From the IMG/VR virus record IMGVR_UViG_3300042935_001404: a stretch of DNA of 64,000 bases, one strand, 5' to 3'. The position numbers were made by a program, and so were the translations under genes. The DNA is from a virus. Taxonomy: Duplodnaviria; Caudoviricetes. This document shows positions 29,948 through 57,590 of the stretch, one piece after another (within the stretch, counting starts at the first letter, position 1; each line of letters starts with the position of its first letter). The notes below the pieces were generated by a model. That model saw nothing but the letters and a program-made list of their open reading frames with translations, ran no database searches and was not told the DNA's origin.

Positions 29948-29967
29948 ATCTACATTTCCTGTATAAT
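29939..29967 (+). promoter_or_regulatory. Sigma70-like promoter TTTACT-N17-TATAAT driving the enzyme island
   Basis: -10 element TATAAT at 29962-29967, 7 nt before the ATG at 29975. Confidence 0.65.
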
Positions 29968-29974
29968 AAACAAT

Positions 29975-30283
29975 ATGAATACTGAACAATTGATTGCACA
30001 CGGTCGTGCCCGTTTTGATCACGTGGCCGCCCGACGACTGCTAAAAGAAAAATATCAAGCCCGAATGTTATTTGCTTATGCTGGTGGTATGTGGTGTGCC
30101 GGCCCGGAATTACATAATATGATATTCACTAGTGGCCGCATAGGTGAAATTGTACTGCCAGACTTGTACGAAAACCCAGTTAAAATTGATTCAAAAGAAT
30201 TAATGACATTGAGTCAACAACGTTGGCAAGAACAGATGAATGCCTGGTTGATCGAATACGAAGAACTTAACAAACAAAGATGA
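29975..30283 (+). CDS. Hypothetical protein (102 aa)
   Basis: ORF begins right after the promoter and is ATGA-coupled to the next gene. Confidence 0.7.
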   Translation: MNTEQLIAHGRARFDHVAARRLLKEKYQARMLFAYAGGMWCAGPELHNMIFTSGRIGEIVLPDLYENPVKIDSKELMTLSQQRWQEQMNAWLIEYEELNKQR

Positions 30284-31077
30284 CCACTGGCGCACTAATA
30301 TTTGCATTTAACAACGAGCAAACTGATTATCTTTCTATGGCAGCATGGTCTGCCAAAAACATACACAGGCATCTTGGAATCCCTGTGGCTGTTGTAACTG
30401 ATTATGAAAACCCGCTAGGCGACTTTGATTATGTTATAAACGCCCAAGCACAAAGTGGTGGTCAACGTTATTTTTCAGATTATGATACCAATGTAACCTG
30501 GCACAATACCAATCGCATGGATGCGTACACATTAAGCCCCTGGAATCAAACACTTGTGTTAGACGCTGACTATGTTGTAGCAAGCAATCATCTGTCTAGT
30601 ATATTAAAAAGCCGTCAAGATTTCATGTGCTATCGCTGGGCTCGGGATGTAACAGGACTGCAAACTTTTGAAGATTTAAACTACTTTGGCAATCATCGCA
30701 TGCCCATGTGGTGGGCCACTGTAATGATGTTCCGTCGTAGTGCCAGCACAGAATTGTTATTTGACACAATGCAAATGGTACGAGACAACTGGACACACTA
30801 CAGGAACTTGTACAAGAATCCCGTTTCAACCTATAGAAATGATCACGCACTTAGCATTGCGTTAAATACTTTAAATGGACACACATTGTGTGTTGATGAG
30901 ATTCCAGGGACACTAGCAAGTCTTACCCCAGAACATCGCTTGACTCAACTTGATGCGGATTCTTACAGAGTAGACTTTTTGACACCCGACAAAAAAGCAC
31001 GATGGATTACACTAACACAAGATTTCCATGCCATGGGCAAACAACAACTAGGAGCCATCGTTGCCAATAGTCTCTGA
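30280..31077 (+). CDS. Glycosyltransferase, GT-A fold (GT8-like)
   Basis: TLVLDADYVV DxD motif, WWATVMMF, YRNDHALSIA, C-terminal H (QDFHAMGK). Confidence 0.7.
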   Translation: MTTGALIFAFNNEQTDYLSMAAWSAKNIHRHLGIPVAVVTDYENPLGDFDYVINAQAQSGGQRYFSDYDTNVTWHNTNRMDAYTLSPWNQTLVLDADYVVASNHLSSILKSRQDFMCYRWARDVTGLQTFEDLNYFGNHRMPMWWATVMMFRRSASTELLFDTMQMVRDNWTHYRNLYKNPVSTYRNDHALSIALNTLNGHTLCVDEIPGTLASLTPEHRLTQLDADSYRVDFLTPDKKARWITLTQDFHAMGKQQLGAIVANSL

Positions 31078-31801
31078 ACGTGGATATCTTATTCCTGCTG
31101 TTAACACAGACACAGTAGATTATGTTGCTTGCGCCGAGCAGTTGGCTGATAGTATACGAGTATGGCATCCAGATGCCAACATAACAATACTGACAAAAGA
31201 AATGTTGCCATATGGCGACTTAGGCGGCTATGCCAATGACTGGCAGGTGTTTCGTGCCAGTCCATATAGACAAACAATCAAACTAGAAGCAGACATGATT
31301 GCTGCCAGCCCTGTTGACCACTGGTGGACTCTGTTTGAGCATCGTGATGTTGTGATCAGTCAAGGTTGTAGAGACTTTTATGATCAACCTGGTACCAGTA
31401 GATATTATCGTCGACTGTTTGACGAAAACAATTTGCCAGATGTATACAACGCAATAACTTATTGGCGTTTAAGTAAAACAGCACAGGATTTTTTTAATCT
31501 AGTAGAGAAAATTTTTTCAAACTGGAGTTCCTACAAGACTTTGTTGAAGTTTCCAGAAGAAGTTCCCAGTACAGATGTGGTGTATGCTATGGCCGCACAG
31601 ATCATTGGTCCAGAACTGGTCACACTGCCCCCGGGTCTTGGTCCAACCATAGTGCATATGAAACAACATATAATCAGCACCCACACTGATGATTGGACCG
31701 AAGAACTAGTGTGGGAAAATACCGATCCGGGTGTGCGGATCAACACAGTAGCACAATGGGGACTTGTGCATTATCATAATAAAGATTGGAGATTGCTTTG
31801 A
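31061..31801 (+). CDS. Glycosyltransferase, GT-A fold (GT8-like), paralogue of the upstream gene
   Basis: SPYRQTIKLEADM, LPDVYNAITYW, STDVVYAMA, IVHMK. Confidence 0.65.
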   Translation: MPIVSERGYLIPAVNTDTVDYVACAEQLADSIRVWHPDANITILTKEMLPYGDLGGYANDWQVFRASPYRQTIKLEADMIAASPVDHWWTLFEHRDVVISQGCRDFYDQPGTSRYYRRLFDENNLPDVYNAITYWRLSKTAQDFFNLVEKIFSNWSSYKTLLKFPEEVPSTDVVYAMAAQIIGPELVTLPPGLGPTIVHMKQHIISTHTDDWTEELVWENTDPGVRINTVAQWGLVHYHNKDWRLL

Positions 31802-32100
31802 GTAAAGAAGAAGATAAATTTAAAAAAAGTAAACGTCTATTAAAAGATGAAAATGCAGTGGCCCGACAAGTTAAGATTGCTAAAGCACACGGCATGACCG
31901 ACAAAGATCTAGCAGTAAAAGAACCACACCGATTGGCCAAGCATCATGTGATGGATTGTGGTAATCCACAATGTCCATTGTGCGGTAATCCTCGCAGAAC
32001 ACACAAAGACACACTGACAGCACAGGAAAAAAGACTTTTCCAAGATGTTGACAAAACAACAGACCGACACTCAAACGGTATTCCGCCTGCAGATGAATGA
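31798..32100 (+). CDS. Basic hypothetical protein with His/Cys cluster (possible Zn-binding)
   Basis: TTG start with GGAG SD; HRLAKHHVMDCGNPQCPLCGNPR. Confidence 0.6.
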   Translation: MSKEEDKFKKSKRLLKDENAVARQVKIAKAHGMTDKDLAVKEPHRLAKHHVMDCGNPQCPLCGNPRRTHKDTLTAQEKRLFQDVDKTTDRHSNGIPPADE

Positions 32101-32440
32101 AACAACTGAAAATTTTTGGCTGGCACTAGCAGAGCCTGCACCGGAACCTGTGCCTATCTTTTTTAGGTTATACTACAATGAGCGTGGTGAGCCAGTATCT
32201 TACAGCATGGAAGATTTGCCAGGTAATTATATAGAGATTGATGCAGAAACATACCACCGCAGTTCTTTTAATGTTCGAGTTGTTGACGGCAAATTAGTGC
32301 CGGTTGTGTACAAAAGACCCGTTAGCAAGTTAAAACCCAGCACAGCAGGAACCGCGTGTGCGCCTAACAATGTTTCTGTTGTTGTTGCAGAAGATCGCCC
32401 ACATACTAAATGGAGTTTAAAATCAAATGAATCAAATTGA
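32093..32440 (+). CDS. Hypothetical protein (115 aa)
   Basis: Overlap-coupled ORF; FRLYYNERGEPVSYSMEDLPGNYIEID. Confidence 0.65.
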   Translation: MNETTENFWLALAEPAPEPVPIFFRLYYNERGEPVSYSMEDLPGNYIEIDAETYHRSSFNVRVVDGKLVPVVYKRPVSKLKPSTAGTACAPNNVSVVVAEDRPHTKWSLKSNESN

Positions 32441-33353
32441 TGTAGCAGACCTAGACTGCATCTACTTAACCTACGACGAACCACAGAAGGAAGAATTCTG
32501 GGTAAAGATTCGCAACATGGTGCCTTGGGCAAAACGTGTTGACGGAGTCAAAGGGTCAGATGCCGCACACAAAGCTGCCGCAGCCGCAAGTGACACAGAG
32601 CGTTTTATCTTAATTGATGGCGACAACATGCCGTACCCAGAGTTCTTTAATCAAACCCTAACGTTCCCTACCGCTGACTATGAACGTGCAGTATTCCGTT
32701 GGAGAGCATGTAACAACATCAACGGACTCATGTATGGCAATGGAGGTATGAGTTCTTGGACACGCACATTTGTCAACGAAATGAAAACACACGAGAACAC
32801 AGATGGCACAGCCGCTACCGAAGTAGAGTTTTGTTTTGATCCTTTATACTGGGCCATGCATGATTGCTACAGCACAACCTATCCCAATGGTTCAGCGTTT
32901 CATGCTTGGCGAGCCGGCTTCCGTGAAGGTGTTAAGATGTGCTTGAACAAGGGTGTGCGTCCCACTGTGGCAGAGTTCAAGAACCGTGTGCACCAACGCA
33001 ACCTAGACAACTTGACTGTGTGGCACAACGTAGGTCGTGATGCTGAACATGGAGTTTGGGCCATTGCTGGCGCAAGAATGGGCACATACATGACCATGCT
33101 GACCAACTGGGACTACAAACAAGTACAATGGTTTGATTCGTTAAATGAGTTGTGGGAAACAGTCAAAGATACCGAGCCTGAACTACTGTTGGGCCGTGTA
33201 GCCGAAGAACTAAGCACACAGTTAGACTTGCCAATGGTGTGGTATGAAGAAGAAGCCAGCAAGTTCTTTAAACATCATTATCGTAGCGGCTGGCATAACC
33301 AAGGTGTTATGATTCGCGAAATTGATGTAATTAGAAAGCAAGAAGGCTGGTAA
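32427..33353 (+). CDS. Glycosyltransferase, GT-A fold (GT2-like)
   Basis: LDCIYLTYDEP, GVKGSDAAHKAAA, FILIDGDN (DxD), NGLMYGNGG, AWRAGFREGVKM. Confidence 0.7.
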   Translation: MNQIDVADLDCIYLTYDEPQKEEFWVKIRNMVPWAKRVDGVKGSDAAHKAAAAASDTERFILIDGDNMPYPEFFNQTLTFPTADYERAVFRWRACNNINGLMYGNGGMSSWTRTFVNEMKTHENTDGTAATEVEFCFDPLYWAMHDCYSTTYPNGSAFHAWRAGFREGVKMCLNKGVRPTVAEFKNRVHQRNLDNLTVWHNVGRDAEHGVWAIAGARMGTYMTMLTNWDYKQVQWFDSLNELWETVKDTEPELLLGRVAEELSTQLDLPMVWYEEEASKFFKHHYRSGWHNQGVMIREIDVIRKQEGW

Positions 33354-33928
33354 TGCAAAAACGATTGCTTTTAGATGGGTGTAGTTTTACCTATGGACTT
33401 AATTTGCTACACAATCAAAAATTAGAGCAGCACTTTGTTGAATCAGGATACGAAGTAGTTAATTTGTCACGCCCAGGTAAAAGCAATTCGGCTATTTCGT
33501 TAGACCTGTACAACAATATGGATTCTTGCGACTTATTAGTAGTAGGATGGACCTTTAGTTCTCGGTGGCATTTAAAATACCACAATCTTGACATTGATTT
33601 ACTAGCCACTAGAGAACATGTAGAATTGCCCTACACGGTAGACAGTAGATTAATAGAACAAAGTTATCAAGAGTTGCATCGGTCTTTCTACAGTTTATTT
33701 GATGCAACACATTGGAATCAACAAAGTGATATGCTAATAGACAATACAGCGGCACTGGCAGCACATCGCGGCAAACAAGCAGTATTTTTCAGCTGGGAAT
33801 CTAGAAAAGTTGCATGTGATATGCATTACCCGCATGTGCCATCCTCGCATCGACTGCCTTGTGGACACTTAAATGCAGACGGCACAACCAATCTATATAA
33901 TACGTTAACACATCTAATAGAACAATGA
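33353..33928 (+). CDS. SGNH/GDSL-fold hydrolase or acyltransferase-like protein
   Basis: DGCSFTYG (block I), NLSRPGKSN (block II), CGHLNADG (block V). Confidence 0.65.
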   Translation: MQKRLLLDGCSFTYGLNLLHNQKLEQHFVESGYEVVNLSRPGKSNSAISLDLYNNMDSCDLLVVGWTFSSRWHLKYHNLDIDLLATREHVELPYTVDSRLIEQSYQELHRSFYSLFDATHWNQQSDMLIDNTAALAAHRGKQAVFFSWESRKVACDMHYPHVPSSHRLPCGHLNADGTTNLYNTLTHLIEQ

Positions 33929-35310
33929 GCACCGGCGATCAAAGTAAATTTATGAGTCTGGCAGAGCAGATGAAAGAGGATCTTGGTCCTGCATTGTGCC
34001 TGGCCAAGTGGAAGCAAGTAAGTCTACATCTACCCACCGGGCTTAATAATTCGTGTTACCATCCGCCATTACATCCAATCTCTGCCAACGATTTACAACG
34101 CCCAGGCGGCATACATAATACTGAGCATAAAAAACAACAACGCATGATGATGATTCGCGGCGAAAAGCCCACTGAGTGTCAGTACTGTTGGAACATGGAA
34201 AATCTAGGCAAACTTTCAGACAGACATTACCGGTCGGGCGAGGCCTGGGCCGCAGTGGACTTTGAAAAAATTAAAAACAGCGTAGGCAATGAAGATGATG
34301 TTGTTCCTTCCTATGTAGAAGTTAATTTTAATCATGCATGTAATCTAAAGTGTAGTTATTGCAGTCCACAGTTTAGCAGTAGTTGGGGCGAAGAAATAGA
34401 CCGATATGGTGCGTTCCCTACTAGCAAGCCGCACAATGCTCCGGAACATTTTGTAGGCAATCGTAAACCTATTCCTGTAAGAGAAGACAATCCTTATGTG
34501 GATGCATTTTGGGAATGGTGGCCCGCCCTGTACCCACAGTTAGAACATTTCCGTATGACCGGTGGCGAACCGCTAATGGATCGAAACACTTATCGAGTGT
34601 TTGATTATGTATTAGAGCATCCTAGTCCCAAACTACACTTAAATGTAACGTCAAACTTTAGTGTAGAAGATCAACTGTTTAAAAAGTACATGTCCTATGT
34701 AAAGCGGTTGTGTACACCCAACATCGAACACTTCATGCAATATGTTAGTTTGGACTCTGGCATAGCACCACAAGCAGAATATATACGTCACGGATTAGAT
34801 TATGATCGCATGTCCAAGAACGTTGTGGAGTTCCTACAAGACATTCCTTATCGCAACAGTTTGACATTTATTGTTACAATGAATAACTTAACAGTAACAG
34901 GACTACAACCTTTGTTAGAATGGATATTAAACCTACGCAAACTATATTCTAACACATATCAACGTGTGTGGTTTGATACTCCTGTGCTACGTGAACCTGC
35001 TTGGCAAAGTTTACAAATACTTCCAGAAAGTTATGCACAACAATTAGAACGTGCTAGAGATTACATGCTGGCTAACATGATTACAGAAGCTAACCCTTTA
35101 CACGGATTTAAAGATTACGAAGTGCAACGTATTGAACGTGATATTGCGTGGATGCGTGAAGGACAACACAAAGATAACTTGGTAGCAAAAGCAGATTTTT
35201 ATCGTTTCTTTAACGAGCACGATCGCCGACGCGGCACCGACTTTTTAACAGCTTTTCCTGAAATGCGATCATGGTGGGCAGAATGTGAGTACCATGCTCG
35301 GCAATCGTAA
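33925..35310 (+). CDS. Radical SAM enzyme with N-terminal Twitch/SPASM-like Cys domain (rSAM-1)
   Basis: CNLKCSYC (CxxxCxxC), RMTGGEPLM; N-terminal LCLAKW...SCYHP...ECQYCW. Confidence 0.9.
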   Translation: MSTGDQSKFMSLAEQMKEDLGPALCLAKWKQVSLHLPTGLNNSCYHPPLHPISANDLQRPGGIHNTEHKKQQRMMMIRGEKPTECQYCWNMENLGKLSDRHYRSGEAWAAVDFEKIKNSVGNEDDVVPSYVEVNFNHACNLKCSYCSPQFSSSWGEEIDRYGAFPTSKPHNAPEHFVGNRKPIPVREDNPYVDAFWEWWPALYPQLEHFRMTGGEPLMDRNTYRVFDYVLEHPSPKLHLNVTSNFSVEDQLFKKYMSYVKRLCTPNIEHFMQYVSLDSGIAPQAEYIRHGLDYDRMSKNVVEFLQDIPYRNSLTFIVTMNNLTVTGLQPLLEWILNLRKLYSNTYQRVWFDTPVLREPAWQSLQILPESYAQQLERARDYMLANMITEANPLHGFKDYEVQRIERDIAWMREGQHKDNLVAKADFYRFFNEHDRRRGTDFLTAFPEMRSWWAECEYHARQS

Positions 35311-36433
35311 ATTTATTATTGACACCATGAGCGAGGTTTACAGTATGATGAAACCTTACTCAGATGACGAGTTGTGGGATCTAGGCGCTCATGAAATTCA
35401 ACCCAACTCAATCTATCTGTTAGGCCGCAAGCAAATGGTAGAACACACAGATCGTGTTAGAGAAATGGCTGCTGACCCAACTATAACTGTGATATTTGGT
35501 AACAGTGCCGAAGGATCTAAAACGATTGTAGATCAATTGCGTGTGTTAAAAATAGAAGACTTAGTGCTGTCAGGGAAGATATTGCTGTTGAGTGGCGGCG
35601 AAATTGAACCTCAATATCCATATTTGTTGCATGAACATTTTATCACACACATACTAGATTATAAAGAAAACATTCAAGCACAACAACGCACTGATGAAAT
35701 TTTTAACAAAAAAATTAAACCTTATAAATTTTTATTTTTAAACGGGCGGGTACGTTCTCATAGAAAATATCTGCTTGAAAGATTGCGTCAACTGGGCATT
35801 TTAGACAGTGCAATCTGGACCATGTTAGATGGCCGAATTCCAACTAATCAATATTTTAGTCTACATGAAAACGGCATAGATGTAATTGGCCAAAATACTG
35901 CGATTAAACAGTTGCCTTCAGAATACGAATTTAAATTTTTTAAGAATAAATCTATTGTGTTGGATTACCCACATAAATTTGCCAAAAATGAATTGTTTGA
36001 TACTCACTGGGGTGAAATTTATTTAGAACCTGCTCCGTACATTGACACTTATTTTAGTTTGGTAACTGAAACTGTGTTTGAATATCCTTATAGTTTTAGA
36101 ACAGAAAAAATTGCCAAACCATTGGCAATGGGCCATCCGTGGATCTGTGCTGCCAGTGTGGGATTTTATCGAGACATGCACAAATTGGGATTTCAAACAT
36201 TTGGACATGTGATAGATGAAAGTTTTGATACAATCGACAATCATCAAGATCGAATGGAAAGAATAGCAATGATAGTCAAAGATTTATGTCAACAAGATCT
36301 TGCAAGTTTTCTAAATGAATGCTATAATGTATGTAAATACAATCAACAACACCTTGCAGAATTGCGCACACAGTGTCGCAAAGAGTTTCCTGACCGTTTC
36401 CAACAATTTATCAATGAACGATTTAGATTTTAA
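35294..36433 (+). CDS. Glycosyltransferase-like protein (GT-B-type C-terminal domain)
   Basis: FLFLNGRVRSHR; FSLVTETVF...RTEKIAKPLAMGHPW...GFQTFGHVIDESFD. Confidence 0.55.
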   Translation: MLGNRKFIIDTMSEVYSMMKPYSDDELWDLGAHEIQPNSIYLLGRKQMVEHTDRVREMAADPTITVIFGNSAEGSKTIVDQLRVLKIEDLVLSGKILLLSGGEIEPQYPYLLHEHFITHILDYKENIQAQQRTDEIFNKKIKPYKFLFLNGRVRSHRKYLLERLRQLGILDSAIWTMLDGRIPTNQYFSLHENGIDVIGQNTAIKQLPSEYEFKFFKNKSIVLDYPHKFAKNELFDTHWGEIYLEPAPYIDTYFSLVTETVFEYPYSFRTEKIAKPLAMGHPWICAASVGFYRDMHKLGFQTFGHVIDESFDTIDNHQDRMERIAMIVKDLCQQDLASFLNECYNVCKYNQQHLAELRTQCRKEFPDRFQQFINERFRF

Positions 36434-37772
36434 ACATGAAATTTTAGACACCAAGAGTGCAAGTTTTTGTGCGGCCAAATGGTACAATGCTACCATATGG
36501 TTGGGAAGTGGACAAACTACCAGTTGCCACCATCCACCGGCACACTCAATTGATCTGGATGCGTTGGCCGCCAATCCTTCTGCGCTACACAACACCGCAA
36601 AGAAAAAAGATGATCGGCGACTGATGTTAGCGGGCAAACGTCCCACAGGTTGTGAATACTGCTGGAAGATTGAAGACATGGGCAAAGATTCCGTATCTGA
36701 CCGTGTGTACAAAAGTAAAATTTACCCTATAGAGGCCTTAAATGATGCATACCAAACCCCCCACACAGAAGATGTCAATCTTCGCACACTTGAAATTGCG
36801 TTCGACCGCACTTGCCAATTTGCTTGTTCTTATTGTAACCCTGCTTTCAGTAGCACATGGGTTAATGACATTAAAAAGCACGGACCTTATGTCGGTCTGG
36901 TGTCAGATGGGCGTAATCACTTTACTCATGCTCATGCTAGCAGTCAACTATACCGATTTGGTGAAACAAATCCCTACGTTGAAGCGTTCTTTAAATGGTG
37001 GGAAACTGACCTACACCGAACGCTCCAAGAACTGAGAATAACCGGTGGCGAGCCGCTGATGAGTGCTGAGACATGGAAACTGATTGATTGGTTTAAAAAC
37101 AATCCAGGCAGATCAACCACTCGGTTAGCAATCAATTCTAATCTTGGCGCAGATGTTGATGTAGATAGACTTATTGAAAGCACACGTGGCCTGGATGTAG
37201 AAATTTACACATCTATGGAGGCTGTTGGTGCTCACGCAGAATACATTCGAGATGGACTAGATTATCACGCTTGGGAAAATAATGTAACTAAACTGTTAGA
37301 CAGTCACGTAGGTGCAGTACACGTAATGGCCACTATTAATGCATTGTGCTTGACAACATTGCCAATGCTTCTGCATTATGTAGTACAACTTAAATCAAAG
37401 TATGGTCGTAAACGTGTTAACTTTACATTAAATATACTGAGATTTCCTAGTTTTCAAAGTCCACTGGTACTGCCCCGGGCATTGCTTACACGTCATATGC
37501 TTGACTTATCTAATTTCTTAAAGCGTTGGAAAACGGTTCCAGACATACTGCACGAACACGAAATTAATCACCTACAGCGATTAATTGATTATTTAGATGT
37601 AGTAAAAACTCCGCATTCAGACGCATTTGACATGCCTAAGTTACACAATGACTTTAAGCAGTTTTACACACAGTATGACCAACGCCGCGGAAAAAGTTTT
37701 AAAGATACATTTAAAGACAGTTATCCAATAGACGTAACATTATCAACATGGTATGACTCAATACAAATATAA
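36414..37772 (+). CDS. Radical SAM enzyme with N-terminal Twitch/SPASM-like domain (rSAM-2)
   Basis: CQFACSYC, RITGGEPLM; FCAAKW...SCHHP...GCEYCW. Start at 36414 chosen to minimise overlap. Confidence 0.9.
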   Translation: MNDLDFKHEILDTKSASFCAAKWYNATIWLGSGQTTSCHHPPAHSIDLDALAANPSALHNTAKKKDDRRLMLAGKRPTGCEYCWKIEDMGKDSVSDRVYKSKIYPIEALNDAYQTPHTEDVNLRTLEIAFDRTCQFACSYCNPAFSSTWVNDIKKHGPYVGLVSDGRNHFTHAHASSQLYRFGETNPYVEAFFKWWETDLHRTLQELRITGGEPLMSAETWKLIDWFKNNPGRSTTRLAINSNLGADVDVDRLIESTRGLDVEIYTSMEAVGAHAEYIRDGLDYHAWENNVTKLLDSHVGAVHVMATINALCLTTLPMLLHYVVQLKSKYGRKRVNFTLNILRFPSFQSPLVLPRALLTRHMLDLSNFLKRWKTVPDILHEHEINHLQRLIDYLDVVKTPHSDAFDMPKLHNDFKQFYTQYDQRRGKSFKDTFKDSYPIDVTLSTWYDSIQI

Positions 37773-44532: not shown

Positions 44533-44533
44533 T

Positions 44534-47405: not shown

Positions 47406-48199
47406 TAGTCTAGGTTGCTGGGTGCGGACCGTTGGTTGTCCATCTGTTCAAGATCTAATGCTGCCAACACATCCTTACTAGTGGTTGGTTCACGCAATGC
47501 TCGGCCTTGTACATGAATCAAGTCCTGTGCTTGATTATAATGCCAACCCGGATCAATTAGTTCTAACCTATTATTTAATAATACGCCAATACTGGTAAAA
47601 ACACACTTAGGTGGAATTAACAAATTTTTAACGTTGTCAAATTGTTCCAAGGATATTGCGTTTATTAATGATGTCAGCCCAATAGGTCGATCCTGGAAGC
47701 ACAGTTCAAATGCTCCGCCGCATAGATATACATTTTCAACGTCAGGATACTGTGAATTGAGCAAATATACCACCTGGTCCAGAGTCCAGGCCGCAAACAT
47801 TTTCTGATCCTGTCTGAGAGGCATAGTTAACACAGCCGGATTAGTGACTGGTGTATCATGAAGTATAAATTGATTTACAACAGGTCCATGATGGTTGTCA
47901 GAGATTATCTGTGCATGTTCTTGTGCCAACCAGGCTGAACCTGTGTAGGCTGGAACAGCAGGATTGAGATCGGGATTGAACACCTGTCTACTGTTGTGCC
48001 AAATTGGCGATTCTATTGGCGTTGCTGATGTTCCGTGCAATTCGTATTCTGTGTAAGATGCAACCACTATGCACTTTACAAAATCTTGTTGAATAAACTC
48101 GGCTAAGTGTTTAAACATTTGATGCGGCCGATGGCCAACTGGATCTAGCCATGCATCAATGACAATAACCGCACTTGGAGTTCGAAACTTACTGGACAT
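47333..48199 (-). CDS. Cysteine hydrolase (isochorismatase)-like protein
   Basis: AVIVIDAW near the N-terminus and VYLCGGAFELCFQDRPIG resemble the catalytic Asp and Cys segments. Confidence 0.45.
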   Translation of the reverse strand: MSSKFRTPSAVIVIDAWLDPVGHRPHQMFKHLAEFIQQDFVKCIVVASYTEYELHGTSATPIESPIWHNSRQVFNPDLNPAVPAYTGSAWLAQEHAQIISDNHHGPVVNQFILHDTPVTNPAVLTMPLRQDQKMFAAWTLDQVVYLLNSQYPDVENVYLCGGAFELCFQDRPIGLTSLINAISLEQFDNVKNLLIPPKCVFTSIGVLLNNRLELIDPGWHYNQAQDLIHVQGRALREPTTSKDVLAALDLEQMDNQRSAPSNLDYYSSISHGNNSFQSVTRRRSISVR

Positions 48200-50239: not shown

Positions 50240-51419
50240 TGTGTATTCTTTCTAATAGAGTATTTAATCTGTGGGCTTTTGAGCTACAAAATAACTGTTG
50301 GTTGTGTTCAACATCTGATCGGCAAGATTCAAACCAGGTGTGCAAGTCTTGCGACTTTAGTTGTGCAATTGTTTTACGCACAGCAATCCAACGTTCAGTA
50401 TTATCTTGTATTGTATCGTAACTGTTGTCTACGACATGATCAAATGTACGATAACCTAGGTCTCGCAATGCAGACAAGGATCCAGGGCATCCTACTACAA
50501 CAAAAGGTTGTCCGTGTTTGATTGCTTTGAATGTTTTTTCAGTTAAAAACGCACCACCTGATCCGTCTGCATCAAAGTGTGTTTCTAATACTATATTACA
50601 GTAACTATCTGTAAAATGATTGGTTTCTATTAGGTGATGATCGTTGTGTTGTTCGTGTGTGAGTGCATCGCATGTGTATGGACCGTTGCTTAAAAACTGT
50701 TTGATGTCTTCTCGAATTTCAAGAGTATCAACCTCAATGGGATTGTCAGTTTCGGCTTCATCTGTCACAATGTCAGTTCCGTAACTCCAGTAACTGTTGT
50801 CTAGTAATCCCTCACGGTGTAGGTCTGTCATCACAGTGGCCCTCCACCATTTGTGTGTTCTGCTTAGTACTGTAAAGTCACGCAATCGTCGATTGGTGTG
50901 TACAGGTGTTGGGGGTATTTGTTGATTGCGATGCCAGTATAGAAGTTCGTGATCTGGAAAATACACAAAGCCTGGAATGCCATTGGCTGCTGTATTGCCA
51001 CTGACAAACCGGTAGCAGTTGGGTGGCAGCAAATGATTTTGACACAGTTCGTCTAGTCGATCTTTGATACGGAATGGATTGTCACCTTCGTGATAGTAAA
51101 ACAGCACAGTTAGTTCTTCTCGACGCAACTGACGTCGTACCACCTCAGTCATTAAAGCAAAGTAATCAACATCAAAGTTAAAAAAGCCTAGTCCTACTGT
51201 GTAGTAAGCACCACTTGTAAGATTGCTAAGATCAGATAACTTATACTTGATGCCGTGTGTGTTGAAATGTTCGTACAACTCAGCAGGAACTGTATTGGGC
51301 CAATGCTGTACAAATTCACGCCATTCTGCAGTGTAAGGTTGTGCCTGCCACCGTGCTAGTGCAGGATATGCTTTGTTACGAACTACGCGGTCAGCAACAA
51401 AGTTATTTGCGTAGTCCAT
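50232..51419 (-). CDS. Glycosyltransferase-like protein, paralogue of 35294
   Basis: FTVLSRTHKWWR; CNIVLETHF...FLTEKTFKAIKHGQPF...GYRTFDHVVDNSYD. Confidence 0.55.
   Translation of the reverse strand: MDYANNFVADRVVRNKAYPALARWQAQPYTAEWREFVQHWPNTVPAELYEHFNTHGIKYKLSDLSNLTSGAYYTVGLGFFNFDVDYFALMTEVVRRQLRREELTVLFYYHEGDNPFRIKDRLDELCQNHLLPPNCYRFVSGNTAANGIPGFVYFPDHELLYWHRNQQIPPTPVHTNRRLRDFTVLSRTHKWWRATVMTDLHREGLLDNSYWSYGTDIVTDEAETDNPIEVDTLEIREDIKQFLSNGPYTCDALTHEQHNDHHLIETNHFTDSYCNIVLETHFDADGSGGAFLTEKTFKAIKHGQPFVVVGCPGSLSALRDLGYRTFDHVVDNSYDTIQDNTERWIAVRKTIAQLKSQDLHTWFESCRSDVEHNQQLFCSSKAHRLNTLLERIHND
50261..50266 (-). promoter_or_regulatory. Possible late promoter core TAAATA upstream of the amidinotransferase
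   Basis: TATTTA on the + strand, 21 nt upstream of the start and inside the upstream CDS. Confidence 0.35.
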
Positions 51420-52518
51420 GGAGCATGCTAGTTAGTTCTGGCCATAATACGTTTGTCAGGCCACCCCTGTAAAAATGGCGGAAGTTGTGTTCCACGAGAG
51501 GTAAACACGCACGATGTATTGATTGGCGCTCTCTTGCACTTTGATTGTCTAGATCTTTTAGTAATCGAGCGACCTTTTCCACACGTAGCACGTCGTCGGT
51601 TTCGGCATCATAGCTTTCATCAAATATGTCATCAAAAGTTTTAAATCCGTAACTGCGCATATACTCTAAGCTGTGGGCAGGTGCAACCAATACAAATGGC
51701 ATTTCTAATGCAATAGCTTTAAATGTTTTTTCTGTTATGTGTGTTCTGCGTCCAAAGTATACAGTTTCGGTAGGAACATATACCAAACTGTCTTGTGCTT
51801 CTGCATAGTTACCTAGCCAGCAACTGGTCATCTGTTGTGATTCTTCTCCTGCAAACAATCTTGGCAAGGCAGCATGTTCAAACACTTGCGAAATATCTGG
51901 ATATGTGTTACAATACTTGTTGGCCACAACACTTATATCAACATTTTCGTATTGGCATACTCGTGGCACACTGATATGATTGTGTTCTAAACCTTGTTTG
52001 AATACATTATACAAAAACAACACACGATGATCACGCTTGCCACCTACAATACGATTGGGACTCATAAAAGTCCGTGTGGGCGCACGATCTCTTGCTCGAG
52101 GAATTAAGAATGACTTGTCATAACCGCGGAACCAGTCTTGACAGGCCCAGCCGTGGTAAAAATAATAGTGACTTTTCCATCCGTATGTTTCACATAGACG
52201 TTCAACATACTCGCCATGTTCACTTACAACAACATGACCAAATTGGGTTGGCTTTACTTGATTATGTTGATGCCACCACAAATCTATATTCCGTCTTGCT
52301 ACATCATCAAACAATGGCCGATATTCTTCCGTCCAGCACGGCTCTTGATCGTGCATCCATACATAGTCAGTTTCTATAATGTCATCACTGCCCAAGTTAA
52401 ATAAAGCATCCGGGTCAGTTTGTCCTGGCGGATCACAAAAAAACAATCTCGTACCTGGTAGATTTTTTTCTATCCAAGGCCAAAAAGTATTATTATAAAT
52501 CTCGTCTATTCTTATCAT
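51403..52518 (-). CDS. Glycosyltransferase-like protein, paralogue of 35294
   Basis: FMSPNRIVGGKRDHR; VYVPTETVY...ITEKTFKAIALEMPF...GFKTFDDIFDESYD. Confidence 0.55.
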   Translation of the reverse strand: MIRIDEIYNNTFWPWIEKNLPGTRLFFCDPPGQTDPDALFNLGSDDIIETDYVWMHDQEPCWTEEYRPLFDDVARRNIDLWWHQHNQVKPTQFGHVVVSEHGEYVERLCETYGWKSHYYFYHGWACQDWFRGYDKSFLIPRARDRAPTRTFMSPNRIVGGKRDHRVLFLYNVFKQGLEHNHISVPRVCQYENVDISVVANKYCNTYPDISQVFEHAALPRLFAGEESQQMTSCWLGNYAEAQDSLVYVPTETVYFGRRTHITEKTFKAIALEMPFVLVAPAHSLEYMRSYGFKTFDDIFDESYDAETDDVLRVEKVARLLKDLDNQSARERQSIHRACLPLVEHNFRHFYRGGLTNVLWPELTSMLHGLRK

Positions 52519-55348
52519 GTTTGATGTATTTTATTCTGGAACAAAGCCCAATTTGTTTGCGCATGAGCAGGCAGTAGATACCATTGAACAGGCACAACAG
52601 CAGAGTCGCACTCGTTTCTTTTGGTTTGTAAATTACTTATCTGACTACACCGGCTTTGATTTTCTTTGGGAACCTGTGCCTTGGCAAGCACACCAGCGAC
52701 ATGCCTGGGCAAGTCAACACCAACCAGATTCGGGCACATATCTTGTGCCTACAGTAGGCTACACAGATACAAACTATCACACCGATGTAGTATTGCAAAG
52801 AATCAACAATGAAGATTCATGGAAAATACACGAAGCAATAGATCAAGAGTCATGGGATTGGTCCTGGCATCCTGATCCGGCAGAGCCTCCTTACATCTAC
52901 GTGTTTGGTAATCAGTGGAACTTTCCTGAATACAAGGCCAGTGTAGAGTATGTTGTACCTGGAGCGACTGAACGCAAGTACATGGATCTAAAAACAACTA
53001 GACTACCGCTGCCGCAGTTATTTGCACATAATCTAGCAGTGAGCAAGTTTGATTATTCGTGGGAACCTAATCCGTTTGATCCTCCTTATGTGTATGTGTT
53101 TGGCAATCAGTGGAACCCTGGTGTACTAGAGCCCACGATAATTTATACAGTACCCGGAGCAACAGAACACAAGTATGTAGATGACATTGTGGCCACTGTA
53201 GCATCCAGTCCTGCAGACTTTGATGTGTTGCACGATATTGCTGACTTTGATTATTCCTGGAGACCCAATCCTACAGATCCAGATTACATATATGTGTTCG
53301 GCAATGAATGGCACACAGCAGAGATCATGCCCACAGTGGAATATCAAGTGGGCAGTGCCACTGAACGCAAATATGTAGAATACCCTCGAGCTAAACTGCC
53401 ACAGCACCGCAATAATAAATGGCACACAGTAGAAGATTGTGATTGGAATTATTCCTGGATACCAGATCCAGGTGATCCTCCTTACACGTATGTGTTTGGC
53501 AATCAGCATTGGTCTGCTGAAATTATGCCTACTGTCACATACACAGTTCCTGGCGCAACTGAACGCAAGTACATGGATTATCCACGTGCTCAACTGTTAG
53601 AAACACACCTACACTGGGACACTATTACACATCATGACTATGAGTTTGATCGATCTTGGCGACCCGATCCTGGTGAGCCGCCTATGATATATGTGTTTGG
53701 CAACCAACACTGGCCTGCAGAGAAAATGCCCGTGTTGCGTTACTGTTCCGAGCCTGCGGATCAAGACTTGCCCATCAAGTACATGGACTACCCTCGAGCC
53801 ACACTACTGCCCAACAAAACAATGTGGGTGCTACCTGAGGGTGTGCGTGAAGAACACGTGGACTTCTCTTGGGTTCCTGATCCTGGTGAACCTGCCTACA
53901 TCTATCAGTTTGCTACACAGTGGCAAAAAACCGGCGGCCCACAGTATCATGTGCCTGGTGCAACTGAAATCAAGTACCTTGAGCATGTAGAAATCAAAAT
54001 TGAAACTACCACAGTTCCTATTGTGGAGATTGATCACTTGGATGGTAGTGCAGGTAACATTCCCGATACCGTCAAACGCATACGTTACTTTGACAACTAT
54101 AGGGATACACTTGTACGTTTAGCCAAAAGTCTAGTTGGTGAGCATGAGTTTGTATGGGTATGTAGCAGTATTTGTGACTACACTGACTTTGACTTTTCGT
54201 GGCACCCGGAAAAATGGCAAAGCACTATGCTACATGTATTTGCCTCCAATGAACAAAAGTTTGGAGATACATTCTACATGCACGTTCCTACATTTGCGGC
54301 TCGTGCAGAGAAGAAAGCCCTGTTGGAATGGTACAGCGTAAACTATGTGCCACGGATTCGTGTTTCACGCAGACCCATGCCTGTGATACAGCACACAGAA
54401 GACAGTCATGTAGATGCAGTCAAGAACGCAACATGGTCAGGTCCATTGGCCACATTTACCACAACTGATTGTGTGTCGGATAATGTAGTCACAGTTCCGC
54501 TGTGGCGCACTGAAACCAAAACTATTGTGCCATTGAGTAAAGGTGCTGCCAGTGTGATTGTTCCGCGAGTGGCAGTAGGTGATATTCGTACACAGTTATA
54601 TGATTACCCGTACATTAATAAAACACAACGCATGGGCAAAGAACATCCGTTGGACATTGTGTTTATAAGCAATGGCGAAAAGTATGCTGGTTTTCATGAA
54701 CAACAGTTATATCGATCAGTACAAAGAGACGGGCTTGACTGCAATCACATACATCATTCTACAGGCGTAAACGGTCGAGTGGCAGCATACCAAGCAGCCG
54801 CTAGGTCAAGTACAACACCTTGGTTCTTTGCTGTGTTTGCCAAGCTAGAAGTTGATCCCAAGTTTGACTGGACATGGCAACCTGATCGTATGCAACAGGC
54901 CAAGCACTACATCTTTCACGCATACAATCCTGTGAATGGATTGACATATGGTCACCAAGCTATGATTGCATACAATAAGAAAATGGTGTTGGAGAACGTT
55001 GGAGCAGGATTAGACTTTACACTGGATCAACCGCATGAAGTTGTGCCCGTGCTCAGTGGTGTAGCTAATTATAATGAAACACCTTGGACAGCTTGGCGCA
55101 CTGCATTCCGTGAAGTGCTTAAATTAAAGGCCAGTCTGCCAGATGTAGAAAGTGAATACCGACTCCGTATGTGGCTCAGTAATGCTGGCGAAGTTCCAAA
55201 TGCAGAATGGAGTCAGTGGGGCGCCGAAGATGCAGTAGAGTACTACGACGAAGTAGGCGGCGACTTTGCGGCTCTAAAGAAAAGTTACGAGTGGACTTGG
55301 TTGGCCAGTTATGCGTTTATGCGACGCAGTTTACAACCTGATCGCTGA
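52517..55348 (+). CDS. Tandem-repeat protein with C-terminal degenerate GT-A (GT2-like) domain
   Basis: Six ~66-aa repeats; C-terminal LDIVFISNGE...GVNGRVAAYQAAA...NPVNGLTYGH...AWRTAFREVLKL is paralogous to 32427. Confidence 0.7.
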   Translation: MFDVFYSGTKPNLFAHEQAVDTIEQAQQQSRTRFFWFVNYLSDYTGFDFLWEPVPWQAHQRHAWASQHQPDSGTYLVPTVGYTDTNYHTDVVLQRINNEDSWKIHEAIDQESWDWSWHPDPAEPPYIYVFGNQWNFPEYKASVEYVVPGATERKYMDLKTTRLPLPQLFAHNLAVSKFDYSWEPNPFDPPYVYVFGNQWNPGVLEPTIIYTVPGATEHKYVDDIVATVASSPADFDVLHDIADFDYSWRPNPTDPDYIYVFGNEWHTAEIMPTVEYQVGSATERKYVEYPRAKLPQHRNNKWHTVEDCDWNYSWIPDPGDPPYTYVFGNQHWSAEIMPTVTYTVPGATERKYMDYPRAQLLETHLHWDTITHHDYEFDRSWRPDPGEPPMIYVFGNQHWPAEKMPVLRYCSEPADQDLPIKYMDYPRATLLPNKTMWVLPEGVREEHVDFSWVPDPGEPAYIYQFATQWQKTGGPQYHVPGATEIKYLEHVEIKIETTTVPIVEIDHLDGSAGNIPDTVKRIRYFDNYRDTLVRLAKSLVGEHEFVWVCSSICDYTDFDFSWHPEKWQSTMLHVFASNEQKFGDTFYMHVPTFAARAEKKALLEWYSVNYVPRIRVSRRPMPVIQHTEDSHVDAVKNATWSGPLATFTTTDCVSDNVVTVPLWRTETKTIVPLSKGAASVIVPRVAVGDIRTQLYDYPYINKTQRMGKEHPLDIVFISNGEKYAGFHEQQLYRSVQRDGLDCNHIHHSTGVNGRVAAYQAAARSSTTPWFFAVFAKLEVDPKFDWTWQPDRMQQAKHYIFHAYNPVNGLTYGHQAMIAYNKKMVLENVGAGLDFTLDQPHEVVPVLSGVANYNETPWTAWRTAFREVLKLKASLPDVESEYRLRMWLSNAGEVPNAEWSQWGAEDAVEYYDEVGGDFAALKKSYEWTWLASYAFMRRSLQPDR
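52850..53990 (+). repeat. Six intragenic repeats, about 198-bp (66-aa) period
   Basis: (F/W)DYSWxP(D/N)PxDPPYxYVFGNQ...PTVxYxVPGATERKY units start near 52853, 53048, 53246, 53444, 53645 and 53864. Confidence 0.9.
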
Positions 55349-56423
55349 TGTATTCAACTTCTAAGTCTGTTAGTTCGGGATAGATAGGCAGACTTAGTAC
55401 ACGACGAGCAAGACTAGAACTTGCGGCCAACATGTCTGGGCCAGGATATGCTCTATACAACGGTAGTTCGTGCAATGGGTTTATATAATGTACTCGTGTA
55501 TCAATCTTGCGCAGTGCAAGATTTGCTCGTAGCGTATCACGTCCATCAACATCTATAACAAACTTATGAACAGCATGATTGTGTGCATTGGTATCGTTAA
55601 TCAAACACCGTATGTCTGTATGTTTAAAACGATCACGCCAATGATCTGCAATCTTTTGTCTACGTGCTTGCCAATAATCAATATGTCGAGATTTAACCAA
55701 CATGTGCGCACAGTCCAGTTCGCTCATACGACTGTTGGTACCTGGATTTCGATGTGTAGGTTTACCATTGTCTCGCCATGCTCGGGCATATTCTGCTAGA
55801 TCCAAATTGTCTGTAACAACGGCACCACCATTGCCATAACAAGCCAAGTTTTTCATAGGATCAAAACTAATTGCCGCACCACCTTTGCCTATTCTTGTGC
55901 AGTCAGCCGATAACCAATGTTGTGCGGCATCTTCGATTATAAGAGTATCATGTTGTACCCATTGATGCCAGGCGCGAACATCACCGTGATGCGTAACTGC
56001 GGCACCGTACAATCCAACCATTACAATTGCCTGATAACTTAACCCTGTTGGTATTGAATTAGTGTTTAATAAACCCTGCGCATCTGTATCAATGATGTGT
56101 ATATCCCAGCCTGCACGTACGAATGCATTGGCAGTGGCCACATAGGTCATTGCAGGGATCAACACAGTGGGAGGATGCGGCACAGGAGATTCCATGGCCC
56201 AGTAATTGGCTAAGATTTCAAGTGCATGTGTGCCTGAATGGCAAGTTACAGCATAACGCACATGATTCTTTCGAGCAAGCCATGCTTCAAACTCCACAGT
56301 GTTGTTGCCGTTCATGAGTTGACCACTGCGAAGAACTTCGTCAGTCACATCTAGAATTTCTGTGCGGAGATTGTTATACTGTTTTTTTAAACCAGTAAAC
56401 GGGATTGTAAGTCCAGTATTCAT
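55317..56423 (-). CDS. DegT/DnrJ/EryC1/StrS PLP-dependent sugar aminotransferase
   Basis: SGTHAL, TYVATANA, IIEDAAQ, SFDPMKNLACYGNGGAVVT (PLP Lys), NSRMSEL, LSLPIYPEL. Confidence 0.95.
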   Translation of the reverse strand: MNTGLTIPFTGLKKQYNNLRTEILDVTDEVLRSGQLMNGNNTVEFEAWLARKNHVRYAVTCHSGTHALEILANYWAMESPVPHPPTVLIPAMTYVATANAFVRAGWDIHIIDTDAQGLLNTNSIPTGLSYQAIVMVGLYGAAVTHHGDVRAWHQWVQHDTLIIEDAAQHWLSADCTRIGKGGAAISFDPMKNLACYGNGGAVVTDNLDLAEYARAWRDNGKPTHRNPGTNSRMSELDCAHMLVKSRHIDYWQARRQKIADHWRDRFKHTDIRCLINDTNAHNHAVHKFVIDVDGRDTLRANLALRKIDTRVHYINPLHELPLYRAYPGPDMLAASSSLARRVLSLPIYPELTDLEVEYISDQVVNCVA

Positions 56424-56599
56424 GCATTCTTTGCCCAGGCAATATACCCACCATTGGCATTGCTCCACGGGCAATACTGTTCCCACAATACAGTTGCTTG
56501 CTCTGGATTCTCTTTCATCAAGAGGTCTAGACTATGCCTGGTCTTGTATCCATCAAGACTCCAGTCATGATTTTTCAATGCAGTTTCTAAGTCATTCAT
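56420..56599 (-). CDS. Hypothetical protein (59 aa)
   Basis: Fills the gap between the epimerase and aminotransferase genes; ATGA coupling. Confidence 0.6.
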   Translation of the reverse strand: MNDLETALKNHDWSLDGYKTRHSLDLLMKENPEQATVLWEQYCPWSNANGGYIAWAKNA

Positions 56600-56610
56600 T
56601 TTGTTTATCT

Positions 56611-57579
56611 TTAAAAAGTAGTTTGCCAGTAGGAAGATTCGCTCAGCCACTTGTAGTAATTTTGGAATCCCTCTTCTACATCTACTCGAGGATCATATCC
56701 AAGCACAGTCCTTGCCTTCGTGATATTTAATGCACCTCGACTGGGAAAGTCCGCATCCTTGTCACGACATTCTATTGTTCCTTTGCCAACAATTTTAACA
56801 ATCATTTCTGCGGCTTCTAACAAACTCACTGAATGTGATTTGGTGATGTTGTAGGTCATATTTTTACTCATGATACGAGTTGCGGCAGACACAATGCCGT
56901 CGGCCGCGTCATCTACATAGGTAAAGTCTAACGTCTCCCCTGCCCCATTAACTCGGAGAACGCTGCCTCGCATTGCTGTGAGCATAAATTTTGCAACAAC
57001 TCGGTCCTCCACATCCAAGGGGCCGTATACAGCACTAGGCCTAATAATAGCGTAATCAAAAGCGCCGCGACGATGGTAGTCTTTGACAATGTCTTCTCCT
57101 GTTAATTTTAAGATGCCGTATTGGCCAATGGGTCGGCAATTGTAGTCCTCTTCAACTTGATCTTCAAAGTCGCCATACACCATTGAACTTGAGATGTATA
57201 CCACACGTTCTACATTGTGAGTTTTGGCACTCTCACAAATGTTAATCAACCCCTCCATCATAACTCTAGCACCCCAAGCTGGATTGGCATTTACAACCTT
57301 TTGTCGGGGGAAACTTGCCATGTGTATTACTACTTCTGGCTTGTGCTCAGCCATAACAAAGTCCATGTCACTGGCATCGGTAATATCGTATGGATAAATT
57401 TTGGTGTCTGGCGCAAGTTTTTTCATACGCTCGTGCATTAAATAGTCAATTTCTGATTGTGGAATAATACCATAGTTGGTTTTTGTATCCACAATTACAA
57501 CATTGTCTCCTCGAGCTTGTAAACGTTGTACCACGTTGTGACCAATAAGACCCAGGCCGCCTGTTACTAATATCTTCAT
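56611..57579 (-). CDS. NAD-dependent NDP-sugar epimerase/dehydratase (extended SDR)
   Basis: ILVTGGLGLIG, YISSSMVYG, YGILK (YxxxK), IRPSAVYGP, LDFTYVDD; SD AAGGAA. Confidence 0.95.
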   Translation of the reverse strand: MKILVTGGLGLIGHNVVQRLQARGDNVVIVDTKTNYGIIPQSEIDYLMHERMKKLAPDTKIYPYDITDASDMDFVMAEHKPEVVIHMASFPRQKVVNANPAWGARVMMEGLINICESAKTHNVERVVYISSSMVYGDFEDQVEEDYNCRPIGQYGILKLTGEDIVKDYHRRGAFDYAIIRPSAVYGPLDVEDRVVAKFMLTAMRGSVLRVNGAGETLDFTYVDDAADGIVSAATRIMSKNMTYNITKSHSVSLLEAAEMIVKIVGKGTIECRDKDADFPSRGALNITKARTVLGYDPRVDVEEGFQNYYKWLSESSYWQTTF

Positions 57580-57590
57580 TTCTTTCCTTA

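Follow-up and report, generated by a model that had tools for sequence, protein, structure and literature searches.

Gene content of the island

The stretch of viral DNA analysed here (the window; 64,000 nt) spans positions 33668-97667 of the viral contig IMGVR_UViG_3300042935_001404 (IMG/VR; Caudoviricetes; 114 kb), which has an estimated completeness of 29%. It contains an island of ~27 kb (29975-57621; positions refer to the window, and genes are named by their first coordinate) in which open reading frames (ORFs) are densely packed, with neighbouring genes overlapping by 1-20 nt. A preliminary description, made from the sequence alone, had proposed that this block is a tightly coupled set of sugar-type and group-transfer genes that builds a modified glycan, and had named virion proteins, phage DNA bases and host envelope precursors as candidate acceptors. 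Searches with Pfam, NCBIfam and phmmer recovered the families of these genes, and both the island and its tight coupling proved to be real (Table 1). Based on these searches and on the comparison with related loci, the island is a real, conserved and wholly soluble phage tailoring module.

Table 1. Features of the island and of its left boundary
Feature	Position	Strand	Remarks
Strong intrinsic-terminator-like hairpin	29922-29941	+	Left boundary of island
Sigma70-like promoter TTTACT-17-TATAAT	29939-29967	+	Left boundary of island
102-aa ORF	29975-30283	+	Variable left arm
GT-A(GT8)-like ORF	30280-31077	+	LDAD; paralogous to next ORF; motif level only
GT-A(GT8)-like ORF	31061-31801	+	LEAD; paralogous to preceding ORF; motif level only
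Two small ORFs of 104 aa and 131 aa	31786-32440	+	
GT2-like protein	32427-33353	+	IDGDN motif
GCS-motif (DUF6071/SGNH-like) protein, accessory	33353-33928	+	Other genes in its place in the complete relative G001
N-terminal-twitch (N-twitch) radical SAM	33925-35310	+	NF033640, 309 bits
GT-B-fold family paralog	35285-36433	+	Paralogy
N-twitch radical SAM, core	36315-37772	+	293 bits; 53% identical to RsoM2USA_202
N-twitch radical SAM, core	37753-39036	+	404 bits; SPASM 32-97, radical SAM core 143-280
N-twitch radical SAM, accessory	39033-40427	+	223 bits; 42% identical to 46140
GCS-motif (DUF6071/SGNH-like) protein, accessory	40428-41009	+	
N-twitch radical SAM, core	40993-42213	+	350 bits
N-twitch radical SAM, core	42194-43492	+	275 bits
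Conserved core protein, predicted cyclophilin-like beta-barrel	43471-44532	+	Helical insert at residues 61-170 (model)
33-codon ORF MNWIKNLYNRIRLEIRYRKKLKELRKRDPFIYK	44534-44635	+	C-terminal 21 residues almost invariant
NodU/CmcH/TobZ-type carbamoyltransferase	44632-46143	+	Pfam
N-twitch radical SAM, accessory	46140-47405	+	222 bits
288-aa accessory ORF	47333-48199	-	
Divergent radical SAM/SPASM, accessory	48189-49271	-	SPASM-like segment N-terminal; in 9/56 loci
AGAT/StrB1-type amidinotransferase	49220-50239	-	phmmer
Predicted GT-B-fold glycosyltransferase-like paralog	50232-51419	-	
Predicted GT-B-fold glycosyltransferase-like paralog	51403-52518	-	
943-aa protein, repeats and C-terminal GT-A-like domain without DxD	52517-55348	+	
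DegT/PseC-type pyridoxal phosphate (PLP) sugar aminotransferase	55317-56486	-	Pfam
Extended short-chain dehydrogenase/reductase NDP-sugar enzyme, GalE-like	56611-57621	-	GGLGLIG, SSSMVYG, YGILK

Radical SAM enzymes

Pfam identified eight radical S-adenosylmethionine (radical SAM, rSAM) proteins in the island, the number given in the preliminary description, and all eight carry the CX3CX2C motif. Seven of them match the full 398-position NCBIfam model NF033640 (N_Twi_rSAM, twitch domain-containing radical SAM protein) with 222-404 bits, above its curated cut-off of 170 bits, and have the motif at residues 124-175. The eighth, 48189-49271 (-), scores only 34 bits; it is not a member but a different rSAM/SPASM protein. 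In several of the proteins a SPASM match precedes the rSAM core; in 37753, 40993 and 42194, Pfam places SPASM at 9-97 and Radical_SAM at 120-282, so the Cys-rich auxiliary segment is N-terminal. The seven NF033640 members are mutually paralogous (22-43% identity) and amount to an expansion of 7 copies in 14 kb, while the 14 control cellular genomes contain no protein scoring above the cut-off. The model name states no reaction and we found no paper on the family; the rSAM paralogs also give weak NCBIfam matches to the YhhB, XyeB, DynA, PapB and SkfB models. One island rSAM has >7,000 homologs in metagenomes. The longest ORF of rSAM 36315 overlaps 35285 by 119 nt (36315-36433); the true start is probably internal, near codon 36, because the orthologs align only from approximately that codon.

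Sugar and group-transfer enzymes

The carbamoyltransferase, amidinotransferase and DegT aminotransferase of the preliminary description were each borne out by a profile or phmmer match. The carbamoyltransferase matches both Pfam domains, Carbam_trans_N with 109.3 bits (cut-off 24) and Carbam_trans_C with 165.4 bits (cut-off 27), and scores 135 bits against the NCBIfam NodU equivalog, whose cut-off of 1000 is not reached. The DegT enzyme matches its Pfam model with 208 bits over positions 4-359 of 360 and reaches no equivalog cut-off, the best being PseC (147 vs 423). The amidinotransferase has no Pfam or NCBIfam match; phmmer aligned it in three stretches (residues 2-339) with human AGAT, StrB1, HsvA and SxtG (E 7e-15 to 2e-10), StrB1 and AGAT being its best solved relatives. 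Its blocks GGISCCT, GHGDAVF and VGRDVF align with GGGFHCWT, MHIDATF and AGRDIF of AGAT, which we take to hold the catalytic Cys (GG-x-H-C-x-T), His and Asp of amidinotransferases. With a median identity of 86%, it is the most conserved enzyme of the island.

The short-chain dehydrogenase/reductase (SDR) matches Pfam Epimerase with 146 bits and contains SSSMVYG at 144 and YGILK at 168, presumably a GalE-like signature. The Asp-Glu pair of RmlB-type 4,6-dehydratases (T-D-E-V-Y-G block), which we take to be the mark of a dehydratase, was looked for in the SDR sequence and is not present. The aminosugar step by an epimerase/dehydratase plus DegT, previously presented as established, cannot be regarded as such, since the SDR signature is GalE-like.

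Approximately seven glycosyltransferase (GT)-like proteins had been proposed. This count stands for three GT-B paralogs, one of them by fold, whereas the GT-A-like proteins were recognised by motif or Atlas neighbour. Genes 50232, 51403 and 35285 form one paralog family. The AlphaFold model of 50232-51419 (pLDDT 85.9) has a carbohydrate-active GT-B fold, and Foldseek matched it with probability 1.0 to SdgB, T4 beta-glucosyltransferase (BGT), BshA and SenB, with AFDB clusters named GT1/GT4. These matches are generic, as SdgB, BshA, SenB and glycogen synthases score alike. The product of 50232 is, according to this model, a putative glycosyltransferase of GT-B fold; 51403 and 35285 are counted as putative GT-B proteins by paralogy.

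For 32427, the only support for the GT-A class beyond motifs is that it adjoins a viral 'GT2-like' Atlas cluster. It is paralogous to the C-terminus of 52517, and the DxD motif is kept in 32427 (DGD) and lost in 52517. The 943-aa product of 52517 has approximately six 66-aa repeats (D-x-SW-x-PDP...YVFGN...PGATE-x-KY) ahead of its GT-A-like domain, and its orthologs span 737 to 1395 aa. In 30280 and 31061 the GT-A likeness is at motif level only (LDAD and EAD, respectively). The GT-A-like ORFs gave no Pfam, NCBIfam or PDB profile match, and PDB profile searches with the GT-B family, 43471, the 30280/31061 family and the 32427 family likewise returned none.

The two genes described earlier as SGNH hydrolases, 33353 and 40428, encode GCS where SGNH proteins have GDS. 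They show a weak TesA match (E 0.067) and no direct Pfam or other profile match; BLAST connects them weakly, via the protein L175_293 (E 9e-5 and 0.002), to DUF6071 proteins that share GCS. This tentative link of GCS-motif proteins to DUF6071 is new here. The model of 43471 (pLDDT 91) shows a barrel of cyclophilin-like form, interrupted by a helical insert (VIA-align Z ~7, a middling score); Foldseek gave no PDB match for it, the Atlas feature search was empty, and its AFDB relatives are uncharacterised.

None of the island proteins has a transmembrane-like segment, in agreement with the soluble, cytoplasmic character that had been proposed. This result bears on host envelope precursors as acceptors, that is, on a modification of the lipopolysaccharide (LPS) or capsule glycan that blocks superinfection. 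Such a role is the usual interpretation of sugar clusters in jumbo cyanophages and pelagiphages (PMC7824862, PMC7029224), and gene content is polymorphic between close relatives. Nevertheless, the island holds no membrane protein or other membrane component, and no initiating phosphoglycosyltransferase, flippase, polymerase or ABC transporter, and a set of rSAM, amidino- and carbamoyltransferase genes is atypical of O-antigen loci; we consider envelope modification very unlikely.

A constrained 33-codon ORF within the operon

A 100-bp 'gap' between 43471 and the carbamoyltransferase gene is in fact a 33-codon ORF that the preliminary description had missed. It begins 1 nt past the stop codon of 43471, and its TGA overlaps the ATG of the carbamoyltransferase gene. 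The ORF is found in 73/79 amidinotransferase loci, the remaining six being short loci. Residues 13-33 of the peptide (LEIRYRKKLKELRKRDPFIYK) are almost invariant across 66 distinct nucleotide versions, while the codons vary freely (six codons for Leu24, five for Arg25 and four for Pro29), a pattern that shows strong purifying selection at the peptide level. The flanking enzymes, with 36-70% identity, are under far weaker selection than the peptide.

In other lineages, the shared ending of the peptide is ...RK-x-DP(F/Y)IY(K/E)-stop. An exhaustive profile search recovered at least 201 peptide clusters at 50% identity (E<=0.001), nearly all of whose members are 30-70 aa long and end at the motif. 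The homologs are called hypothetical in every source, and Pfam and NCBIfam have no model for the peptide. In the Ralstonia phage RsoM2USA (MG752970.1), an unannotated 36-codon ORF ending in RKQDPFIYK lies between RsoM2USA_201 and _200 (L001 19026-19136). Its neighbours are three DUF6071 paralogs (_200, _201 and _203), the N-twitch rSAM _202, which is 53% identical to 36315, and the carbamoyltransferase _199, which is 45% identical to that of the island; all of these neighbours are annotated as hypothetical. A marine single-virus contig encodes the peptide upstream of a carbamoyltransferase (49 nt) and an rSAM, and in the metagenome contigs L189 and P0227 it is coupled to a carbamoyltransferase. 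In the abundant, marine P0143 context, it lies amid an rSAM/SPASM gene and four GCS/DUF6071 paralogs, and on the AT-rich contig L185, from a metagenome-assembled genome (MAG), it directly follows a classical rSAM/SPASM gene and precedes a GCS-motif protein. The peptide stands beside rSAM, DUF6071 or carbamoyltransferase genes in every context examined. No micro-ORF was found beside the carbamoyltransferases of P-SSM2, S-CAM8, Mosig and C48C1. The selection at the peptide level and the wide distribution of the micro-ORF are new here.

A scan of MAG contigs for the peptide DNA pattern gave 9 matches, 7 of them true: six with the same island and one (L185) in the other context described above. 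The two remaining matches, L181 and L184, contain no ORF and are due to chance. The contigs with the island or the peptide (L177-L183 and L185) were binned in MAGs labelled Haliscomenobacter, Legionellales, Legionella, beta proteobacterium, Lishizhenia and Pacearchaeota; they probably belong to phages and ended up in cellular MAGs through binning errors.

The position of the micro-ORF suggests one explanation in which it is not a substrate at all, but a small subunit of the carbamoyltransferase or a ribosome-arrest or leader peptide, the island being devoted purely to sugar tailoring. Its stop codon overlaps or abuts the carbamoyltransferase start in this clade, L189 and P0227, and in RsoM2USA the carbamoyltransferase is one gene further on, and in the marine virus it is 49 nt downstream. 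A variable N-terminus followed by ~21 invariant C-terminal residues would fit a nascent-chain element, and the short, uncharacterised sxtJ/sxtK ORFs beside sxtI in the saxitoxin cluster offer a precedent (PMC2885083). However, no carbamoyltransferase follows the peptide in the P0143 context or on L185, and the absence of a Pfam or NCBIfam model also speaks against this explanation, which we regard as unlikely.

Conservation of the island and the complete relative G001

We surveyed 56 full 21-kb related IMG/VR loci around the amidinotransferase. Orthologs of 36315, 37753, 40993, 42194, 43471, the carbamoyltransferase, 51403, 52517, DegT and the SDR are present in 56/56 loci, with a median identity of 58-72% and in the same gene order as in the window, so the gene set is not scattered among relatives. 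An ortholog of 50232 occurs in 54/56 loci and one of 35285 in 45/56. The accessory part consists of the left arm (29975-33928) and of genes 39033, 40428, 46140, 47333 and 48189. The paralogy and the synteny in 56/56 loci indicate that the island is not a chance assembly. The phages that carry it, uncultured T4-core jumbo phages of aquatic origin with genomes of about 320-365 kb, form a clade within which the island is vertically inherited.

The complete, near-identical relative IMGVR_UViG_3300027759_000045 (G001; 346,856 bp with direct terminal repeats; 85-99% protein identity) has four other genes in place of 33353 and lacks 39033/40428. It encodes 16 NF033640 proteins above cut-off, scattered over the genome. 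Ten of these genes lie outside the island, e.g., C1:191531, 248924, 257607, 271951, 279432, 281977, 292983, 318146, 337731 and 340288, one of the ten having an in-frame TAG. The same outlying regions encode NifU_N, Fe-S_biosyn (IscA-like), Clp protease, ClpS and ribonucleotide reductase. Given the NifU- and IscA-like Fe-S scaffold genes of G001, the Fe-S enzymes are presumably functional.

Neither a ThyA-family (dCMP/dUMP hydroxymethylase) gene nor a TGT/DpdA gene was found in G001. DNA modification based on hydroxymethylcytosine or hydroxymethyluracil and 7-deazaguanine modification are therefore disfavoured, and with them phage bases as the acceptor. A hypermodification that adds sugars or guanidino/carbamoyl groups to the bases of phage DNA would accord with the presence of T4 BGT among the GT-B fold matches and with the ThyX and nucleotide-metabolism genes that adjoin the island; rSAM and PLP enzymes also take part in known thymidine hypermodification pathways. 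The generic nature of the GT-B matches nevertheless adds to the two missing gene families, and this is the most improbable of the explanations considered. The 16-copy rSAM expansion with Fe-S scaffold genes and the negative results on base modification are new here.

Borders and surroundings of the island

The left part of the window carries virion and baseplate protein genes, including that of a baseplate wedge protein ~34% identical to its counterparts in jumbo myoviruses of the Rak2, CBB and Atu_ph07 type. Directly 3' of the wedge gene is an ORF of 4841 aa (12263-26788, +), presumably a giant fibre or adhesin, whose only Pfam signal consists of FG-GAP repeats at approximately residue 2700; fibre-like proteins are also encoded left of the island. 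The location of the island directly behind tail-fibre genes, as previously described, is correct in terms of position, but a terminator and a sigma70-like promoter lie between them. From these predicted elements, the island is separated from the fibre genes and is its own putative transcription unit. The T4 late-promoter motif TATAAATA has 2 occurrences in the window, no excess over chance, and the overall counts of sigma70-like and terminator-like sites in the window show no enrichment. A 5% share of the words was reached in only one metatranscriptome run.

This arrangement bears on virion proteins as acceptors, which are possible. Under virion glycosylation, the sugars would be placed on the 4841-aa fibre protein or on other structural proteins encoded upstream, as in mycobacteriophage and giant-virus virions. 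The proximity of baseplate and fibre genes, the solubility of all enzymes and a turnover of accessory genes like that of surface-antigen loci are consistent with it, and the 'host recognition clusters' of pelagimyophages mix fibres, GTs and rSAM cassettes (PMC7029224). However, the separate transcription unit, the unenriched late-promoter motif and the lack of a link between any GT and a structural protein make this explanation quite improbable.

Within the island, the start codons of the divergent genes 51403-52518 (-) and 52517-55348 (+) overlap at 52516-52519 (CATG); therefore, each promoter must sit within the other gene. To the right of the island are two small membrane proteins, 57591-57941 (-) and 57934-58497 (-, DUF389), which are not conserved in relatives, followed by the ThyX thymidylate synthase (58820-59512, -), which is. 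Three further radical SAM genes, outside NF033640, lie ~6-10 kb before the window start (G000 C1:24016-27500; Pfam 38-49 bits).

A proposed pathway

The following is established: which families the enzymes belong to, that they include paralogs, that the gene order is conserved, that no membrane protein is among them, and that the operon encodes a peptide under strong purifying selection. Of the modified glycan proposed earlier, the sugar branch (SDR, DegT and three GT-B proteins) is well supported, whereas a glycan as the end product is not established. As the leading, though tentative, explanation, we propose a cytoplasmic pathway for an aminosugar conjugate decorated with guanidino and carbamoyl groups on a protein or peptide acceptor, possibly the 33-aa peptide. 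Either the SDR or the N-twitch rSAM paralogs, the latter in analogy to the twitch rSAM BtrN, would oxidise hydroxyls of a nucleotide-sugar, or of a cyclitol-like unit, to ketones, and the DegT enzyme would aminate the ketone. The amidinotransferase could then convert the amine to a guanidino group with arginine as the donor, the carbamoyltransferase could carbamoylate a hydroxyl or amine, and the GCS-motif proteins may add or remove acyl groups. Finally, transfer of the decorated sugars in the cytoplasm would fall to the three GT-B and the GT-A-like enzymes, the acceptor more likely being a protein or peptide than DNA or an envelope lipid. We infer this oxidise-aminate-amidinate/carbamoylate logic by analogy with known tailoring systems. 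The 33-aa peptide is the most specific candidate for the acceptor and may serve the rSAM and carbamoyltransferase steps as their substrate, scaffold or partner; an equally good possibility is that it acts as a small partner of the carbamoyltransferase or as its regulatory leader.

Several observations weigh against this pathway. The SDR motif looks epimerase-like, which would leave the keto donor of DegT without an assigned source, and the GT-A-like and SGNH-like assignments come from motifs or weak matches. The fold predicted for the core protein 43471 is non-carbohydrate. Genes for a nucleotidyltransferase, a peptidase or an exporter are missing from the island, and none of its enzymes has an assigned substrate. 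Around the ten outlying NF033640 copies of G001, the Pfam tally includes few sugar-related families, and only one DPFIY peptide occurs in the G001 stretches examined. Additionally, the neighbours of the peptide vary by lineage: the P0143 context has no carbamoyltransferase within 5 kb of it, and L189 no rSAM within 6 kb upstream.

An explanation that overlaps the proposed pathway makes the 33-aa peptide, not a sugar, the core of the product, in the manner of ribosomally synthesised, post-translationally modified peptides (RiPPs) or of a scaffold. The twitch rSAMs would crosslink or oxidise the invariant C-terminus (DPFIYK), the carbamoyl- and amidinotransferases would act on Tyr/Lys or on a unit attached to the peptide, and glycosylation of the peptide by the GTs would give a pathway similar to that of mycofactocin or of glycosylated RiPPs. 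Purifying selection at the peptide level, the translational coupling of the peptide gene within the operon and the co-occurrence of rSAM/SPASM genes with it in at least five lineages are consistent with this explanation; additionally, SPASM/twitch enzymes are typically peptide maturases, and the paralogs weakly match the models named above. Conversely, Pfam and NCBIfam revealed no RiPP recognition element (RRE) domain, leader peptidase or exporter in the island, the peptide has no Cys, a single peptide would face up to 16 rSAMs per genome, and the L189 context combines sugar-activation enzymes and a carbamoyltransferase with no nearby rSAM. On balance, we consider the peptide-centred explanation somewhat unlikely. 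Its more specific form, in which the peptide is the ribosomal substrate or scaffold of a pathway joining many rSAMs with glycosylation, amidination and carbamoylation, and yielding an undescribed modified (glyco)peptide or peptide-derived small molecule, is rather unlikely.

Comparison with known systems

In agreement with the preliminary description, we found no characterised pathway of such size and composition; partial versions have been published without a function. The T4-like Campylobacter phages CP220 and CPt10 have an interchangeable module of 10-12 genes with five rSAMs, a glycine-amidinotransferase and no assigned function, and 11-12 rSAMs per genome (PMC2853527). Their amidinotransferase has no sequence match to 49220 at E<=1e-5, and, unlike in the island, sugar, GT, carbamoyl and peptide parts have not been reported. 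The cyanophage S-SCSM2R encodes a DegT-like enzyme with an rSAM and an amidinotransferase (PMC12801897), jumbo cyanophages have carbamoyltransferase and LPS clusters (PMC7824862), and pelagiphage Mosig has a DegT-rSAM-carbamoyltransferase-methyltransferase set. Like the island, the loci of P-SSM2, S-SSM6a, Mosig and S-SCSM2R belong to T4-core phages and are polymorphic clusters in which SDR epimerase/dehydratases and GTs occur with rSAMs, carbamoyltransferases and DegT-like enzymes (PMC7824862, PMC7029224, PMC12801897). They differ in containing 2-oxoglutarate-Fe oxygenases or single rSAMs, and have neither the 33-aa peptide nor a seven-fold expansion of N-twitch enzymes; their function is likewise only inferred.

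Aminocyclitol and aminoglycoside tailoring systems resemble the island in bringing four enzyme classes together. These are the twitch rSAM dehydrogenase BtrN, the DegT-type aminotransferases StsC/BtrR, the amidinotransferase StrB1 and the carbamoyltransferase TobZ. In contrast, the twitch domain of the island enzymes is N-terminal rather than C-terminal, all identities are low, the NCBIfam matches are far under the equivalog cut-offs, and there is no sign of an antibiotic product. An aminoglycoside antibiotic was not adopted as the product; no cyclitol synthase (inositol-phosphate or 2-deoxy-scyllo-inosose synthase) was found, and nothing matched at an equivalog cut-off.

The mycofactocin pathway combines a peptide with an rSAM-SPASM enzyme and a GT. 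In both mycofactocin (MftA/C/F) and PQQ (PqqA/E), as in the island, SPASM/twitch rSAM genes are accompanied by the gene of a short peptide whose C-terminal aromatic motif is invariant; however, the island yielded neither an RRE chaperone (PqqD/MftB) nor a peptidase or flavoenzyme, and its peptide is very basic and Cys-free. The saxitoxin cluster, as noted above, also places short ORFs next to a NodU-type O-carbamoyltransferase and includes the amidinotransferase SxtG, a PDB match of 49220, whereas the remaining sxt pathway is absent from the island. The island is best regarded as a variant of phage sugar-tailoring islands, with a modest chance of being a peptide-centred pathway of a new kind.

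Significance

Phage sugar clusters are usually set aside as 'LPS genes'. The island differs from them in being soluble and dominated by an uncharacterised radical SAM family, and it joins guanidino- with carbamoyl-forming enzymes, phage-encoded Fe-S scaffold genes supporting it; its 33-codon ORF is among the most strongly constrained small ORFs of the region. Metagenomes contain the module in abundance, and a reduced, unannotated version exists in the cultured phage RsoM2USA, which makes its product directly testable. If the peptide were the substrate or scaffold, such a class of peptide-derived products would be widespread in aquatic jumbo phages and present in RsoM2USA as well. Were the product defined, NF033640 and DUF6071 would gain a function, as would the long-unexplained rSAM clusters known from Campylobacter phages and from marine myophages.

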